Source: a virus (taxonomy: Duplodnaviria > Heunggongvirae > Uroviricota > Caudoviricetes). Taken from it: a stretch of DNA of 18,860 nucleotides. The position numbers were made by a program, and so were the translations under genes. The stretch's first letter is position 1; the number at the start of each line of letters is the position of its first letter. Location: IMG/VR virus record IMGVR_UViG_2526164632_000035. One strand, written 5' to 3'. The notes beneath the pieces were generated by a model. It saw nothing but the letters and a program-made list of their open reading frames with translations, was not told the DNA's origin and made no database searches. Shown here piece by piece: positions 11,553 through 18,643 of this stretch.

Positions 11553-11919
11553 AAACAGCCATTCCGCCATCAACGTGTGTTTTTGCATCTGAGGACATAA
11601 TCAGAATCACCCGACCAACATCCGCAATCTCAACGGATTCCCCTGTTTCACCATCAATGCTACAGAGATGGAGGCAGGTCAGAACTCTGATGCGCGTTAA
11701 CGCACCGGATGTATCCTCACGAACATCATGAGCCGCGGTTTCCCGCTCCCGGATCACCGTATCCCCAACCTGAACATCCTCGCCGGATGACTGTATTTCC
11801 TCTTCCCATTCCGCCACCCGCTGCGCTATCTCTGCGGCACTCCCGGATATATCCGGCTCACGCCCCAGAATCAGGGCCAGTTCATCAAGCCGTTTCAGAT
11901 TTTGCTCTTTCGTTGCCAT
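11545..11919 (-). CDS. FI: DNA packaging protein (lambda gpFI-like)
   Basis: Start chosen at the internal ATG (MATKEQNLKRLDELALILGRE…AEIAQRVAEWEEEI…). Acidic mid-region. Position between E and FII. Confidence 0.7.
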   Translation of the reverse strand: MATKEQNLKRLDELALILGREPDISGSAAEIAQRVAEWEEEIQSSGEDVQVGDTVIRERETAAHDVREDTSGALTRIRVLTCLHLCSIDGETGESVEIADVGRVILIMSSDAKTHVDGGMAVYA

Positions 11920-11970
11920 ATCAGCCCCCTGTGAAAAAAGACACGGGGGCATTTCGCCCCCGCTCACGGA

Positions 11971-12998
11971 TTATTTCACCTGTACCACCACAAACTCATC
12001 CGGGTCCGGCAACACCATCAGCGGCGCAGACTGCGTCATGGTAAATTCACGGGCGGGATCCCCCACCGTCAGCCAGTGTTTCGGATAACGGGAAGAGGCC
12101 ACCACACCTTCGGACAACGCCTGCGCATCCTGAATGGCACCGTAACAACGGATCCCATCTGCAGCAGTATTCCCCAGAACCAGCATGCCCTCCGGCAGAT
12201 AACGTTTTTCGATACCGTCTTCTGCTATATAAGACGTTTTCGCCACCACAATGGCCAGATCGCCGTAATACCCCTTGAAGGACACCACTGCGCCCAGATC
12301 TTTCACTGCCGTTTCGAGTTGAGAATTTGAACCGCGACGGGTATCCAGTTTTTCGCGGAACAGCTTAAAACCATTCAGAAGACGCCAGACGGTACCGTCC
12401 ATAATGGCAATATTCACAAGACCGCTGGCCTGGTCGCAGTAGAGGTCAAGATCATGTGTAGGATCGAACGTGTCACGATCCTGTTTTGACCACTCCTTAC
12501 CACTACCCTGAGTGATGTTATTCTTCGTCGACCTGCCAAAATCGACCTCAATTTTCTCGAACTGGTCTCCTTCCATCGTGTATTTGCCATACAGCACGGC
12601 ATTCACCGCCTGCATTTCTTCCACCTGGACAATGGCGTGCTCTTCCTGTTTGAGGTTATCAGTGATGATACGCAGACGACGGTAGGCCGGGTCGTTCAGC
12701 TGAGCCGGATCTTCACCGGGAAGACGCTCAACCGCCTGCTGGTAATTAAATTCGTGTTTCGGCTTGACGTAGCCCGGACGTAACACGCGGGTTTCACCAC
12801 CACGATGACGCAGCACTTTTCCTTCAACAACCGGGGAGACATAGGCCGCCACCGGCGTTTTCCAGTAATTTTGTCCAGCATCACCTCTTCGGTATGGAAA
12901 TTCACCGTACGGCGGAAAAACAGCTCCAGAAACAGCGCACGAAATTTCACTTTTTGTTCGGTATAACCGAGTAACTGGCGGGTCGTAAACAATCCCAT
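11971..12998 (-). pseudogene. E: Major capsid protein (lambda gpE-like), split by a frameshift at the homopolymer 12858..12861
   Basis: N-terminal frame from ATG 12998 (MGLFTTRQLLGYTEQKVKFRALFLELFFRRTVNFHTEEVMLDKITG) and C-terminal frame (…VAAYVSPVVEGKVLRHRGGE…PGYVKPKHE…VQVEEMQAV…KLDTRRGSNSQLETAVKDLG…GDPAREFTMTQSAPLMVLPDPDEFVVVQVK) both match consecutive parts of lambda gpE but sit in different frames. The junction is at minus-strand ggAAAAcg. Confidence 0.8.
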
Positions 12999-13055
12999 AA
13001 ATCAGTTCCTTTCATTCAGAAATCAGTCAGGCCACCGCGGTGGCCTGATAACGTG

Positions 13056-13403
13056 TTACGGCAGCGCCGCGTGACTCAGGGCACTGCCGGCAAAGGCATT
13101 TGCCTTTTTGTGTTCATCCACACTTTCAGGCCAGCGGATTGCCTCCGTCGCAAAGGTCCCCGACTTGTAATAGGTCAGTACCGTCTCTGTGCCTTCAAGC
13201 GGCAGTACCAGTATGCCAACTGCACTACCGGCTTTCTGTCCGTCCCAGACCACCAGTTTCCCGCTGGCTTCATCCAGCATCAGGGGCGTCAGTGCCGGTG
13301 TTGCCGAGGAAATCCCGCTGCTGCCTGTGGCGGTATGAGCCGGATCATTACCGGCAAAAATACGTACTTCCGCACGCTGTTCAGTGATGGTTTTCGTTAC
13401 CAT
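13056..13403 (-). CDS. D: Head decoration protein (lambda gpD-like)
   Basis: Start at ATG 13403 (MVTKTITEQ…) with AGGAGG 8 nt upstream. NDPAHTATG…TPLMLD…KLV.WDG…AVGIL…TYYKSGTF…WPE…AFAG. Confidence 0.85.
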   Translation of the reverse strand: MVTKTITEQRAEVRIFAGNDPAHTATGSSGISSATPALTPLMLDEASGKLVVWDGQKAGSAVGILVLPLEGTETVLTYYKSGTFATEAIRWPESVDEHKKANAFAGSALSHAALP

Positions 13404-13438
13404 ATTGTAAAACCTCCTGTTGATGATCAGCACTGACT

Positions 13439-14945
13439 TCATGGCATGGCCATGAGCATTTTCACGTCCGCATCACCGTCTGCTGACGTCTGTGGCACGC
13501 CACCCTGTACCGCTGCCGGTGAATGGTTCGCCATGATGCGTTCAAACAGGGCGGTTGTGGATGCAGAGACCGGTTCTGCCTTACCTGATCCCGCAGCCAG
13601 CACAGCCCGGGCGCTCTCCACAGTCATTCCCGGGCAGGCAGCCAGCTGTTCAGCCTGCGCCTCAGCCCCTTTTGCCTCATCCAGTGCCATGATCTGATCA
13701 CGGAGTGAGGGTCCGGCATCCGCCTGCGGTGAAGCAGCCAGGATCGGGCGGGCTTTTTCCACCGTCATCTCCGGCATCGCCGCCAGCGTTGCCGCCAGTT
13801 GTTCACGACCGTTCGCTTCTTCACACGCCATAATGCGATCGGCTTCACTCTGCGTGGATGCCACCGGCTGCTGCGGTGCCGCCGCGGCCAGAATCGCCCG
13901 GGCCTGTTCAACGCTCATGCCCTGTTGTCCTGCCAGCATCGTGGCAAGCTGTTCACGTCCTTTCGCTTCCTGGCATGTCAGGATCCCCATCACTCGCTGG
14001 TTCTCCTGCGCGGCGGCTTCCGTTGCAGTTAATTGCGGCATAGTGCCTCCTCTGACATTACTGTTCAGCGCCGTGGCCATCACACTGATGGCATCCGACG
14101 CATTGACTAATTCATCCGCCAGCCCGGCATCAATGCCGGACTGACCTTCAAAAACGGCGGCCTCTGTTCCCGTGACGGCATCAACAGACAGACCGGTAAA
14201 CATGGCCACTTTTTCGGCAAACATCCGGCGCGCCGCATCAATGCGCTGCTGCATGTCCTGGCGAACCTCTGCCGGTAAGGCTTCAAACTGATTGCCATCC
14301 ACCTTGTGCGCCCCTGAGTAAATCAGCGTGATATCCACACCGGCCTGCGCCAGATGACCGGCATAGCTGACATGGCTCATCATCACGCCAATGGAGCCGA
14401 TACGGGATGTCTGGGTAACCAGCCGTCGGGAGCAGGCCGATGCCAGCAGCATGGCTGCAGAACAGGCCGTGTCATTGCACAGTGCCCAGACCGGCTTCTG
14501 CTGACGGAGGCGGTAAATCATGTCAGCGCAGTCAAACGCGCCGGCGGCCTGCCCGCCCGGACTGTCAATGTCCAGCAGTACGCCCCGCACCTGGCTATCC
14601 GCCATTGCCTGCTGAAGACAGGCGACAATGCCGTCATAGCCAGTCATTCCGGAAAATGGCCGCATCCCCCCCAGCCGGTGCACCAGCGTGCCGGTCACCG
14701 GCAGTACCGCAATACCGTTCACCACCCGGTAAACACGGGCCGGTCGTTTACCTCCGGCCATGTACTCGTCCGTTTCAGCCAGCATTCCGGGAGCATCAAG
14801 CTGTACCTGCTGCTTGTGGTACCGAAAGACTTGCTGCCCCCATCTCGCGCCCGAGCGCGCAAAAGAAAACCCGCGCATAGGCGGGCTCCAGAAGCAGCGG
14901 TTCATTGAATGCTGCGGCAATAATGTGTGAAAGATTACGTCTCAC
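13439..14945 (-). pseudogene. C: Head maturation protease and scaffold (lambda gpC/Nu3-like), with a frameshift near 14796..14825
   Basis: The true N-terminus is in another frame: GTG at 14943..14945 with AGGAGA 9 nt upstream gives VRRNLSHIIAAAFNEPLLLEPAYARVFFCALGREMGAASLSVPQAAGTA*, matching the lambda gpC N-terminus, with a stop at 14796..14798. The rest (…GKRPARVYRVVNGIAVLPVTGTLV…GMTGYDGI…LLDIDSPGG…KPVWALCND…LVTQTSRIGSIGVMM…) is in the track ORF frame 13439..14920. Confidence 0.75.
13537..13996 (-). repeat. Three tandem, diverged copies of an approximately 150-bp unit encoding an approximately 50-aa motif in the Nu3/scaffold part of C
   Basis: Protein copies: RVMGILTCQEAKGREQLATMLAGQQGMSVEQARAILAAA…; RIMACEEANGREQLAATLAAMPEMTVEKARPILAAS…; QIMALDEAKGAEAQAEQLAACPGMTVESARAVLAAG…; followed by a partial RIMANH…. 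Lambda as recalled has one copy. Confidence 0.7.
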
Positions 14946-16528
14946 GTGGTGTTGTCTCCTCTTCCGGCCTGCGACTCTCCGCTATCTGCTGCTGATACGC
15001 CTGCGCTATCCACACCGGACGTGAGAGTCCGGCTTTTTCCCGCTCTGCAGATTCCCTGACCTGCTGGCGGAAAATGTCCTGATAATCCTCGCCCATCAGC
15101 GCCAGCTCTTTCTCATACGTGCTCAGTCCGGCCTCAATGCGCATCACTGATTCCTGAACCTCCTTGAGCCCGTCAATGGCCATTCTTCCGGCTCCAATCC
15201 ACTCAGCCCGTGACCAGGCTGATCGCGCCTGATAAAAATCAAAACGTGCCCGTGGCGGACGAATAATCCCCCGAAGAAGTGCCTCTTCCAGCCAGCAGGA
15301 AAACATCTGCGTGGCCAGCCGGGACGCAATAAATTTTCGCCGCCCCATAAAATAGCGCCACGACTCATTGGCGGATGCGCGGGCACTTGAATAACTGACC
15401 TTCGAGTAATCACGGGACAACTGTTCGTAGGAAACGCCAAGACCGGCGGCGATATACCGCAGCAGCGCCTGTTCAAGCGCCGAAAATCCATTGTCTGAAT
15501 CCTGCGCGGTCTGAAGTTTCAGATCATCACCGGGGAAAAGGTGCGGAATTTTGACACCGCCCAGCGTCACGCTATTCGTGTCATACCAGGTGGAGAACTT
15601 ATCCAGAATATTAATAAGCGGATTATCCTTCTGCCCCTGCGGCGCACCGGCGATATATTCAAAGGCCTTTTCGGTATCAAGGTCACTTTCAATCGTCGCT
15701 GCATACATCGCCTTCACTATGGCCGACTGAAGCTGTGTTGCCTGCAGGGAATCGAGCATCTTCAGCCGTTCCATTACGCTGTAAAACTGATTGGCCCCAC
15801 GGGTCTGCCCGTCCTCCACCGGCTCGAAAATATGCAGCATGGCCGGACGCCCGGTGGGAAGTTCACGCGGGATCCGTTCCCATCGTCCACTCCCAGAGAA
15901 CGGAAAATCATCCTCACAGATATGGTACGCAACGGCACGACCATATCGATCGACCTCCACACCGGCCCGCAGAAAACGGTTCCCCATACCGTGTCCTGGC
16001 GTGTCCACCCGTTTCGGACTCACGGCTTTAAAACGCGTACGAAACAGTTGCGTGCTCTCCGTATCCCAGACCGGCTGCACAAAGATTTTCGCCGTTAAAC
16101 GCATGAACGCCCACACCTTCACGAATAAATTCCGTAAACGTGCGTTTCTCTTCCACGTCGATCTCGCCAGACATCCCTTCGGCGTATTCCGACCAGGCCG
16201 CCTCCACCTCATCGACAAAACTTTTTGCCGCAGTCTCCCGCATCCCCAGCCAGCGCCAGTTCGGACGGTAGCTGATCAGAAACATATGCCCGACAATATG
16301 ATCCTTATGCAGGGCCACCGCATTGGCCGCTATCCCGTTATTGCGCACCAGATCATCTGCCCGGGCATTCCCCAGACGCAACGCAGGCAGCAGGGCTGCA
16401 TCGGCACTCTGCGCCGGTGGCAACCACTCCGCCATTTGCCCGCCAAATCCTGCACCGCCACCGTTGTAGCTGAGGCTCTCCCGAAGCGGAACGCCGTTCA
16501 CATCAATCAGGACAGGCGTTCGTTTCAT
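14935..16528 (-). pseudogene. B: Portal protein (lambda gpB-like), split by a frameshift at the homopolymer 16086..16089
   Basis: N-terminal frame from ATG 16528 (MKRTPVLIDVNGVPL…GGGAGFGGQ…NARADDLVRNNGIAANAVALHKDHIVG…HAFNGEN) stops at 16028. C-terminal frame (…IFVQPVWDTESTQLFRTRFKAVSPKR…FEPVEDGQTRGAN.FYSVME…QSAIVKAMYAATIES…GLGVSYEQLSR…) runs to the stop at 14935. Both match lambda gpB. The junction is at minus-strand gAAAAtc. Confidence 0.8.
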
Positions 16529-16731
16529 AACCTCACTCCCAGCGGACGACGGCGACGTCGGGTTGTCCCCAGTACCGACTCCGCATCATTGATCGCCCGG
16601 TTAAGCTCATCCAGAGAAGCCGCCGTATATTCAATTCTGCGACCATCTTTCTGGACAGACACCACCCGTTTACCGGTTAATAAATCAAGGCGCGCCTGAC
16701 GCAGCGCCTGCAGTTCAGCGACTGTAACCAT
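16525..16731 (-). CDS. W: Head-tail connector protein (lambda gpW-like)
   Basis: 68 aa, same length as lambda gpW (…LTGKRVVSVQKDGRRIEYTAASLDEL…RRRR). Stop overlaps the B start (ATGA). Start overlaps the A 3' end. Confidence 0.85.
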   Translation of the reverse strand: MVTVAELQALRQARLDLLTGKRVVSVQKDGRRIEYTAASLDELNRAINDAESVLGTTRRRRRPLGVRL

Positions 16732-18643
16732 TCACTCCTCCGGACAGCTTCGCTGCCAGTTCTTTCAGGGTTGGCCGGGTCGTCTCTTCTTCCCGGGATT
16801 TTGCCAGTACAGCCAGATCAAGCTGCCAGCGTTGCACGGACACACGTAATGCCGCGTAGGCATACACCAGGCAGTCCAGCGCTTCGTTACGCCGCTTTTT
16901 GTTATCCCACAGCAGACGCATCTTTCCTTTTTCCCACTTCTCCACCAGCTCTTCCGCCACCAGTTGCTGCGCCTCTGTCTGCGAAAAAATCTCCGGATCA
17001 TCAGGAAAACGGATGGCATACGACGTGGCTTCATCCGCAGGCGTGGGATCGGCTTTCATACGGGCATAGAGAATTTCTTTTGCGGTGTCCGTCCCCACTT
17101 CGCACAGATACACGCCCCGCTGATTGCGGGTTTTTGGCATGGTGATCACCGGCTTGCCATAAACAGATGCACCTTTTACCGGCAGCACCCGGAAAACACC
17201 GTGTTTTTTTGACCTCTGATAGACAATTTCGCCATCGATCCCCCCGGTGTCCCAGCAGACACGGGAAATGGTCATTTCGGTTCCGTCTGCATGGCGGTAT
17301 TTTTTGTTGATCGCCACATCCACACGTAACAGCGTCTCTTCCTCATCGGGACGCCCCATAATGATGATTTTATCCACCAGAAAGGCTTCCTCTCCCGGAG
17401 CCCATCCCCAGACATACATCTCAAAACGGTTTCGCTGCGAGTCAATGCCCGCCGTCAGATAAACCACCCGGGAAGGCACCGCAGCCGTGTAACGCACAAC
17501 CTTATCCATCAGCACCTGGTGATCGAGTTTTTCGCCCACGGCCTCTTCCCAGGTCTCGCCCAGCGTGGTGTTCACAAAGGTTTTCAGGCCGTTGGGATCT
17601 TTCAGTGCATCCAGCCAGTCATAGACAATCTGTACCCAGGTGGTGAACGGACTGTACGCCGTCCAGATATGAAATGTGATGGAGCGCGGCGGCGGAATTT
17701 CATTATCCGCGGCGCTGAAAAACGTCAGACCGTCGCGGGTCCACATGCCCGTGTTTTCGCAGATCCACCGCCCGTTGCTCTGGTCAAGCTCAGACTGATG
17801 GATCACGCAGCCATGATGTTCACAGAGGTAGAAAACGCTTTCGGGGCTGTCCTTCTCCCATTTAAGGCCAAAAGGCGTGGACTCATCGCCAAATTTCAGA
17901 TACTGCGCCTCCCCACAGTGCGGGCAGGACACATAAAAACGCATGAAATGCGCCGACTCGTTGGCCGCTTTTTCGATCTGGCAGGAGCCTTTTATTTTAG
18001 GCGTCGAGCCGCGAATGGATTTTGGCCATACCGAGCCCTCAATACGCTTATCCCCCAGCAGGGTTGGCGAGCCCTCTTTTTCGACATCCGGCTCGAACGA
18101 GGAAAGTTCGTCATAGCAGACCACGTCCACGGATTTTTCACGGTAGTTTTTTGCTGCCGCACCACCCAGGCACCAGAAGCCCACCCCCGATGAAAAGCGT
18201 TTCAGCGTGAGAGTATTGTCACGATGTTTACGACCCAGCCACGGGGAAAGATCTTTCAGGCATGGCACGTCCCGAATCGTCGCCTCCACGTGAGACTTCA
18301 TAAAATCTTCAGCGGCAGAATCCGTGGGCTGAAAAAGCAGACTGTTTCGGGATTTATGCTCAATAAAATACCCGGCGACTCCCAGCAACATCTTTGTATA
18401 GCCAACACGGGCAGATTTAATCAGATTAACAGTGCGGATCTGATCATTCCCCATACTGTTCATGATGGCGATCTGGAACGGCAGCGTTTTCCATTCGCCG
18501 TCACCGTATGAGGATTCTTTCGGCAGATAATAATACTGGTCAGCCCATTCAACTGCCGTCATCGGTACAACCCTGACCAGAGGCTGCAGCGCAACCGAAA
18601 CGGCGGCCACCATATTATTCAGTTGTTGCTCTGATATATTCAT
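16715..18643 (-). CDS. A: Terminase large subunit (lambda gpA-like)
   Basis: Start chosen at the internal ATG 18641..18643 (MNISEQQLNN…), aligning with lambda MNIS…; about 643 codons. Similarity throughout (TAVEWAD.YYYLPKES, KSARVGY.KMLLGV, KRFSSGVGFWCLGGAAAKNYREKSVDV, GDKRIEGSVWPKSIRGSTPK, HFMRFYVSCPHCGE.QYLKFGD, FHIWTAYSPFTTWVQIV, LTAGIDSQ, CWDTGGID, KGASVYGKPV, WDNKKRRNEALDC). Confidence 0.92.
   Translation of the reverse strand: MNISEQQLNNMVAAVSVALQPLVRVVPMTAVEWADQYYYLPKESSYGDGEWKTLPFQIAIMNSMGNDQIRTVNLIKSARVGYTKMLLGVAGYFIEHKSRNSLLFQPTDSAAEDFMKSHVEATIRDVPCLKDLSPWLGRKHRDNTLTLKRFSSGVGFWCLGGAAAKNYREKSVDVVCYDELSSFEPDVEKEGSPTLLGDKRIEGSVWPKSIRGSTPKIKGSCQIEKAANESAHFMRFYVSCPHCGEAQYLKFGDESTPFGLKWEKDSPESVFYLCEHHGCVIHQSELDQSNGRWICENTGMWTRDGLTFFSAADNEIPPPRSITFHIWTAYSPFTTWVQIVYDWLDALKDPNGLKTFVNTTLGETWEEAVGEKLDHQVLMDKVVRYTAAVPSRVVYLTAGIDSQRNRFEMYVWGWAPGEEAFLVDKIIIMGRPDEEETLLRVDVAINKKYRHADGTEMTISRVCWDTGGIDGEIVYQRSKKHGVFRVLPVKGASVYGKPVITMPKTRNQRGVYLCEVGTDTAKEILYARMKADPTPADEATSYAIRFPDDPEIFSQTEAQQLVAEELVEKWEKGKMRLLWDNKKRRNEALDCLVYAYAALRVSVQRWQLDLAVLAKSREEETTRPTLKELAAKLSGGVNGYSR

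Follow-up and report, generated by a model that had tools for sequence, protein, structure and literature searches.

The window analysed here, an 18,860-nucleotide stretch of DNA assigned to the Caudoviricetes, very probably encodes a scaffolding protein of the phage 21 gp6 type, nested in an S49 protease gene and built on three ancient modules that have been kept by selection and that coincide with the annotated Tri boxes of phage 21; the module would be the part of the scaffold through which it interacts with its partners. The three tandem, diverged copies are real and stem from an old duplication. As a discovery the triplication matters little, since it has been publicly annotated since GenBank record M81255.1 and is present in about a third of complete E. 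coli genomes. New here are the survey of copy number, the analysis of selection, the rejection of a supposed fourth copy and a structural model of the unit, all of them refinements of a known feature.

The protease gene and its nested scaffold frame

The repeats lie in a minus-strand gene (13439..14945) homologous to phage 21 gene 5 and lambda C, which encodes an S49 prohead protease with a C-terminal scaffold domain. By megablast, the gene is 98.4% identical in nucleotide sequence to phage 21 genes 5/6 in both M81255.1 (head operon) and OL657228.1 (complete genome), and other lambdoid E. coli phages match it at 94–98% identity. The initial annotation had placed the repeat in the Nu3 part of gene C, and profile searches bear out a lambda-C-type S49 protease gene: the N-terminal two thirds of the protease match Pfam Peptidase_S49 (SppA-like; PF01343; E 7e-35, 120.7 bits against a cutoff of 24.9), and the whole protein falls into PHROG 53, head maturation protease (E 1e-206). 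In phage 21 and the closest E. coli prophages the annotated genes run from portal through protease and decoration protein to major capsid protein, an order with which the open reading frames (ORFs) of the window agree.

An intact in-frame ORF of 200 codons plus stop is nested in the 3′ part of this gene (13439..14041, minus strand). Its counterpart is phage 21 gene 6, analogous to lambda Nu3, which M81255.1 lists as CDS "6"; OL657228.1 has it as a nested "scaffolding protein" alongside a capsid protease/scaffolding protein. Because the scaffold start is internal and in frame, protease and scaffold have the C-terminal domain in common. The strand had been missing from the initial annotation; ORF and repeats are both on the minus strand. 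A Shine-Dalgarno-like GAGGAGG, read directly from the sequence (14046..14052, minus strand), stands 4 nt upstream of the internal ATG (14039–14041), both phage 21 records (M81255.1 and OL657228.1) mark a putative ribosome-binding site at the corresponding position, and the initiator Met of the scaffold is invariant across 18 homologues. Translation from the internal start is putative, following the phage 21 annotation, and both the Shine-Dalgarno sequence and the ATG that it would use are present in the window.

By alignment with phage 21, the protease gene begins with a GTG at 14945, and the long ORF of the window that holds the repeats runs from 13439 to 14920 (minus strand). The protease frame is broken in the window by a 1-nt insertion at about 14813–14814, near codon 44 of gene 5, called relative to phage 21 and to the prophage of E. 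coli FDAARGOS_1059; the first ~44 codons are shifted, and the scaffold ORF and the repeats are left untouched. The extra base could be a sign of decay or a homopolymer sequencing error. The FDAARGOS_1059 prophage is the closest intact E. coli prophage (99.5% identity over 4.9 kb), and relative to it single-base length changes occur in short T or A runs at 12857, 13408, 14814 and 16086. Three of these four break head genes: the major capsid ORF (11971–12852 / 12696–12998) and the portal ORF (14935–16218 / 16028–16528) are each split in two, and the N-terminal part of gene C no longer reads in frame. All four may reflect either prophage decay or homopolymer sequencing error. A comparison of the head region (11900–16800) with complete RefSeq E. 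coli genomes returned no match above 99.5%.

Elsewhere in the window, an IS66-family insertion element with three ORFs (HTH_Tnp_1, TnpB_IS66 and DDE_Tnp_IS66, the last with E 1e-103) occupies 1319–3907 on the plus strand. It is directly downstream of tail gene I (3828–4382, minus strand), in the place expected for gene J and the tail-fibre genes. An ORF for a type III secretion effector of the SseK/NleB family (1–732, minus strand; Pfam E 4e-137) runs off the end of the window, and this effector leads us to assign the window to a lambdoid prophage with an effector cargo, from an E. coli of the attaching/effacing type or a relative.

Three diverged units and a conserved tail

The scaffold opens with a leader of 12 residues (aa 1–12; 14006–14041), followed by unit 1 (aa 13–65, 53 aa; 13847..14005), the orthologue of lambda's single unit, unit 2 (aa 66–112, 47 aa; 13706..13846) and unit 3 (aa 113–163, 51 aa; 13553..13705), the most diverged of the three, all on the minus strand. 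The span first given for the repeat, 13537–13996, was right within about 10–15 bases. In unit 3 of the 21-type proteins the near-invariant GRE is replaced by GAE, and this unit, having lost the near-invariant Arg, may be partly degenerate.

Pairwise Smith-Waterman scores between the units range from 87 to 101, against a mean of ~26 ± 5 for composition-preserving shuffles (z 11.5–15.7). A unit hidden Markov model (HMM) finds three domains in the window-type protein (E ~1e-25 to 1e-27), and PHROG families 8399 and 8940, which are single-unit scaffolds of the lambda Nu3 type, each match three separate stretches of the scaffold. The repeat region is Ala-rich, and the four homopolymer indels elsewhere in the window indicate that the quality or integrity of the sequence is imperfect, both of which would suit chance similarity in an Ala/Gln/Glu-rich low-complexity tail or an artefact of assembly or slippage. 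We give such an explanation practically no weight, however, as the observed unit scores were reached by none of 2000 shuffles, the same three units recur in Gifsy-1, in 1864 complete E. coli genomes and in phage 21 as sequenced twice independently, and 0 of the 4 indels fall within the repeat.

The three units were in effect already marked in the 1993 phage 21 record, M81255.1, the paper behind which is presumably Smith and Feiss (Gene 126:1–7, 1993). That record contains three repeat_region features in gene 6, named "Tri1 box," "Tri box" and "Tri3 box," with the note "function unknown; putative." Mapped onto the minus strand of the window, the Tri1 box (13871–13974) lies inside unit 1, the Tri box (13724–13834) inside unit 2 and the Tri3 box (13580–13693) inside unit 3. 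By this correspondence of sequence, the triplication is a known feature, identical to the Tri1/Tri/Tri3 boxes of phage 21. No discussion of the Tri boxes was found in the set of papers searched, and it is the GenBank annotation of M81255.1 that shows the feature to have been known before.

The filing of the boxes as repeat_region features of unknown function, together with two CII-consensus pattern matches marked in the same gene in OL657228.1, might suggest that they are DNA-level elements, protein-binding or regulatory repeats that happen to fall in coding sequence. This is very improbable. Between units, 43–53% of amino acids and 52–63% of bases are identical, but more than half of the common residues are written in differing codons; the window and the Salmonella prophage Gifsy-1 keep a conserved protein despite saturation at synonymous sites (dS ~2.2); and Tandem Repeats Finder (TRF) detects no periodicity in the DNA. 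The codon differences, the saturated dS and the lack of a TRF period together place the conservation in the protein. TRF reported no repeat on the window because the unit copies are just 52–63% identical in DNA, and the recurring DNA seeds in the repeat region are only 12–15 nt long, spaced 141–156 nt apart. The same degree of divergence argues against both slippage and an assembly artefact. The view of the repeat as an old expansion and no artefact, put forward in the initial annotation, was thus upheld by the blank TRF result, the low nucleotide identity between units and the presence of three units in Gifsy-1 as well.

Three copies and a partial fourth had originally been described. The three are borne out by the alignment scores and the HMM domains above, but the fourth is not. 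The segment concerned is the conserved C-terminal tail (ALFERIMANHSP...MLMAMP, aa 164–200; 13442..13552, minus strand). As a partial fourth unit it was rejected, since it scores below the shuffle mean against every unit (z −0.2 to −0.7), and a profile-profile comparison of tail and unit by hhalign gave a probability of 0.1%. The tail has its own consensus, LDxAMxxxxP, in 105 homologues including lambda, in which the single unit is followed by ALDRLMQGAP, the tail motif. On this conservation we regard the segment as a C-terminal tail common to the whole family, present in single-copy homologues too.

An AlphaFold2 model of the whole 200-aa scaffold with 18 homologues reached a pLDDT of 56, too poor for a fold search, and a single unit was therefore modelled. 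Lambda Nu3 is reportedly largely disordered, which would fit the poor whole-scaffold model. With an alignment of 26 units, the single-unit prediction, which had been proposed as a check at the outset, attained a pLDDT of 83 (~90 over residues 1–42) and consists of three short helices (residues 2–9, 18–25 and 32–41) and, after them, a linker of low confidence. Between units, the linkers are rich in Pro, Ala and Gln and predicted to be disordered. Foldseek comparison of this unit model with the PDB gave no match (best E 6.2) and no scaffold protein, and a helix-turn-helix coat-binding domain of the P22 type is accordingly not supported. Among predicted viral structures, the Foldseek matches to the unit were confined to the C-termini of other S49 prohead proteases (TMq 0.75–0.83, probability 0.99–1.00), namely those of Salmonella phage 37, Synechococcus virus S-ESS1 and an uncultured siphovirus. 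Judged from these models, the module is a predicted widespread element of the S49 protease/scaffold family, with no solved structural relative found in the PDB. Sequence hits in the PDB, to designed repeat proteins through a short "GVSLEQA..IL" and weakly to Arl3, were rejected as spurious, and a Pfam HHH (helix-hairpin-helix) match in unit 3 only was rejected for falling short of the gathering threshold (13.1 bits against a cutoff of 24, E 0.093).

Copy number, origin and selection

In lambda C and Nu3, translated from NC_001416, the unit HMM finds exactly one domain, in agreement with the single copy that the initial annotation had given for lambda and had offered as a point on which its claim could fail. 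Unit 1 of the window aligns with the lambda unit with the highest score among the three (128, z 21.7, 29/53 identical). The full three-unit domain is found in 20 sequenced-phage records, including phage 21, ev017, 4A7, 1W/3W, the PhiR series and Gifsy-1; for lambda, 434, HK629/630, phi80, mEp237, HK225 and N15, the match spans one unit only.

A word-indexed homologue search gave mostly fragments, and we therefore took copy number from HMMER run exhaustively against 1.84 billion representatives of 50%-identity clusters, which yielded 31,135 protease-scaffold relatives. Units were counted in the 127 full-length proteins among the best 150 of these. This comparison of repeat number across C/Nu3 homologues, likewise suggested at the start, found one unit in 101 of the 127 representatives, none detected in 24, two in a single protein (a deletion variant of the 21 type) and three in one other. 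C homologues thus normally have a single copy, and triplication marks the phage 21/Gifsy-1 clade. Three metagenomic proteins of 130–132 aa (P0089–P0091) lack a protease domain and are made up of a low-complexity N-terminal stretch, a single unit and the tail motif, and from this layout they look like separate Nu3-like scaffold genes.

Among 5426 complete E. coli genomes, 1864 contain the three-unit scaffold (coverage ≥80%), at up to five places per genome. Copy number is polymorphic, with 1, 2, about 2.5, 3 or 4 units, the called proteins with 2 or about 2.5 units being mostly partial. Two-unit database proteins (P0020 and P0021) look like recombinants between unit 1 and unit 2, and in P0009, P0011 and P0016 unit 2 is partly deleted. 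A four-unit form (P0027) also exists, and its allele is annotated as an ordinary intact S49 peptidase in 104 complete E. coli genomes. In one such allele (E. coli GCA_032727965.1 contig, L007 410–918), TRF reports a period of 138 nt with 3.7 copies and 77% matches, covering units 2–4; that these units are visible to TRF points to an independent expansion, either younger or homogenised. The intact four-unit alleles and the proteins with 2 or about 2.5 units indicate that three copies are not strictly needed.

In every lineage, the best-scoring partners of unit 1 are other units 1 and the single unit of lambda. Three residues of helix 1 (VMG) are missing from units 2 and 3. The resemblance of unit 1 to lambda and the missing VMG in units 2 and 3 argue that the lambda-type unit is ancestral and that units 2 and 3 were added. 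Since Gifsy-1 has three units, the triplication is older than the split between phage 21 and Gifsy-1; units 2 and 3 would thus have come from an ancient tandem duplication before these two lineages parted. Between the window and Gifsy-1, the units have a dN/dS of 0.13 and the protease part one of 0.14, synonymous divergence being saturated (dS ~2.2). The value for the units indicates that they are kept by purifying selection on the protein.

Proposed role and comparison with known systems

On the reading that we favor, the scaffold gp6 would be translated from the internal Shine-Dalgarno sequence and ATG within the 3′ third of the protease gene, and its domain would consist of the 12 leading residues, three modules of ~45 aa, each with three helices and a flexible linker, and the conserved tail. 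The module would be the scaffold's interaction unit, serving in self-association and/or in attachment to the portal or the interior surface of the major capsid protein. Such binding would bring scaffold and protease into the prohead, where the protease would then digest the scaffold, and three copies would make the scaffold multivalent and longer. That copy number might bear on capsid assembly had been suggested in the initial annotation. A helical C-terminal coat-binding element is the usual design of phage scaffolds, as in P22 gp8. The interactions listed for the lambda proteins are Nu3–Nu3, Nu3–C, Nu3–B (portal) and Nu3–E (major capsid protein) (PMC3224144).

It has to be weighed whether the two extra units act mainly as filler, holding the scaffold at ~200 residues where the 21-type start is just before unit 1. 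The annotated lengths of 200 aa for phage 21 gp6 and 201 aa for lambda Nu3, both of which take their starts from annotation, would fit such compensation, as would the predicted disorder of the linkers between units. Against it, the dN/dS of 0.13 in the units equals that of the protease domain, so that sequence and not length alone is conserved, and the four-unit alleles annotated as intact in 104 genomes show that length is not tightly fixed. We consider compensation of length unlikely as the main role of the extra units, and prefer to see in the module an interaction unit.

We are doubtful about a broader proposal, in which the number of modules (1, 2, about 2.5, 3 or 4 among natural prophages of E. 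coli and Salmonella) might be a tunable setting of valency or length in lambda-type scaffolds, changing the number of capsid or portal subunits engaged by each scaffold or protease molecule, and might also compensate for the different internal start of the phage 21 lineage; the module would then be a widely distributed prohead-targeting domain of S49 proteases, occurring even in a cyanophage. With a single copy of the module in lambda, three in phage 21 and Gifsy-1 and four in a further E. coli prophage lineage, these phages provide a natural experiment of modest value. Their capsids are probably alike, and deletion or addition of units in the tractable lambda/21 system could reveal the role of the conserved core of the lambda-type scaffold.

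Scaffolds of the P22 gp8 type are similar in outline, in that a protein that later leaves the prohead is flexible apart from a small helical C-terminal element; the element in the window differs in being repeated and in being also fused to a protease, and no relationship of sequence or fold to P22 gp8 was found. Lambda gpC and gpNu3 share with the window an S49 protease, a C-terminal scaffold domain common to an in-frame nested gene, and the same module and tail motif. Lambda has one unit and the window three, however, and a low-complexity linker of ~55 aa precedes the unit in lambda, unlike in the window. The annotated Nu3 start is 118 aa upstream of the unit, whereas the start in the window is 12 aa upstream. 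The annotated scaffolds are nearly equal in length, with 12 aa, three units and the tail making up 200 aa in the phage 21 type, and 118 aa, one unit and the tail making up the 201 aa of lambda Nu3 (L003 2633–3238). A lambda Met (GGRMTKETQ) sits where the 21-type start (GGTMPQLTA) is.

The lambda gpC homologue of Gifsy-1, STM2605, resembles the window in having three units and the tail and in keeping the internal Met, with 53.5% identity over the whole scaffold domain; the canonical GRE motif, no longer present in unit 3 of the 21 type, is intact in its unit 3, and its tail is longer than that of the window. Phage 21 gp5/gp6 is closest, with three units at the same places, a nested start with a Shine-Dalgarno sequence, and as neighbours a portal, a decoration protein of the shp type and a major capsid protein. 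In the scaffold of the window, 6 of the 200 residues are not those of phage 21 gp6 (97.5% identity in one search). The window departs from phage 21 in the 1-nt insertion near codon 44 of gene 5, by which the full-length protease frame is broken, and in its setting, an effector-carrying prophage interrupted by an IS66-family element, whereas phage 21 is a free phage.
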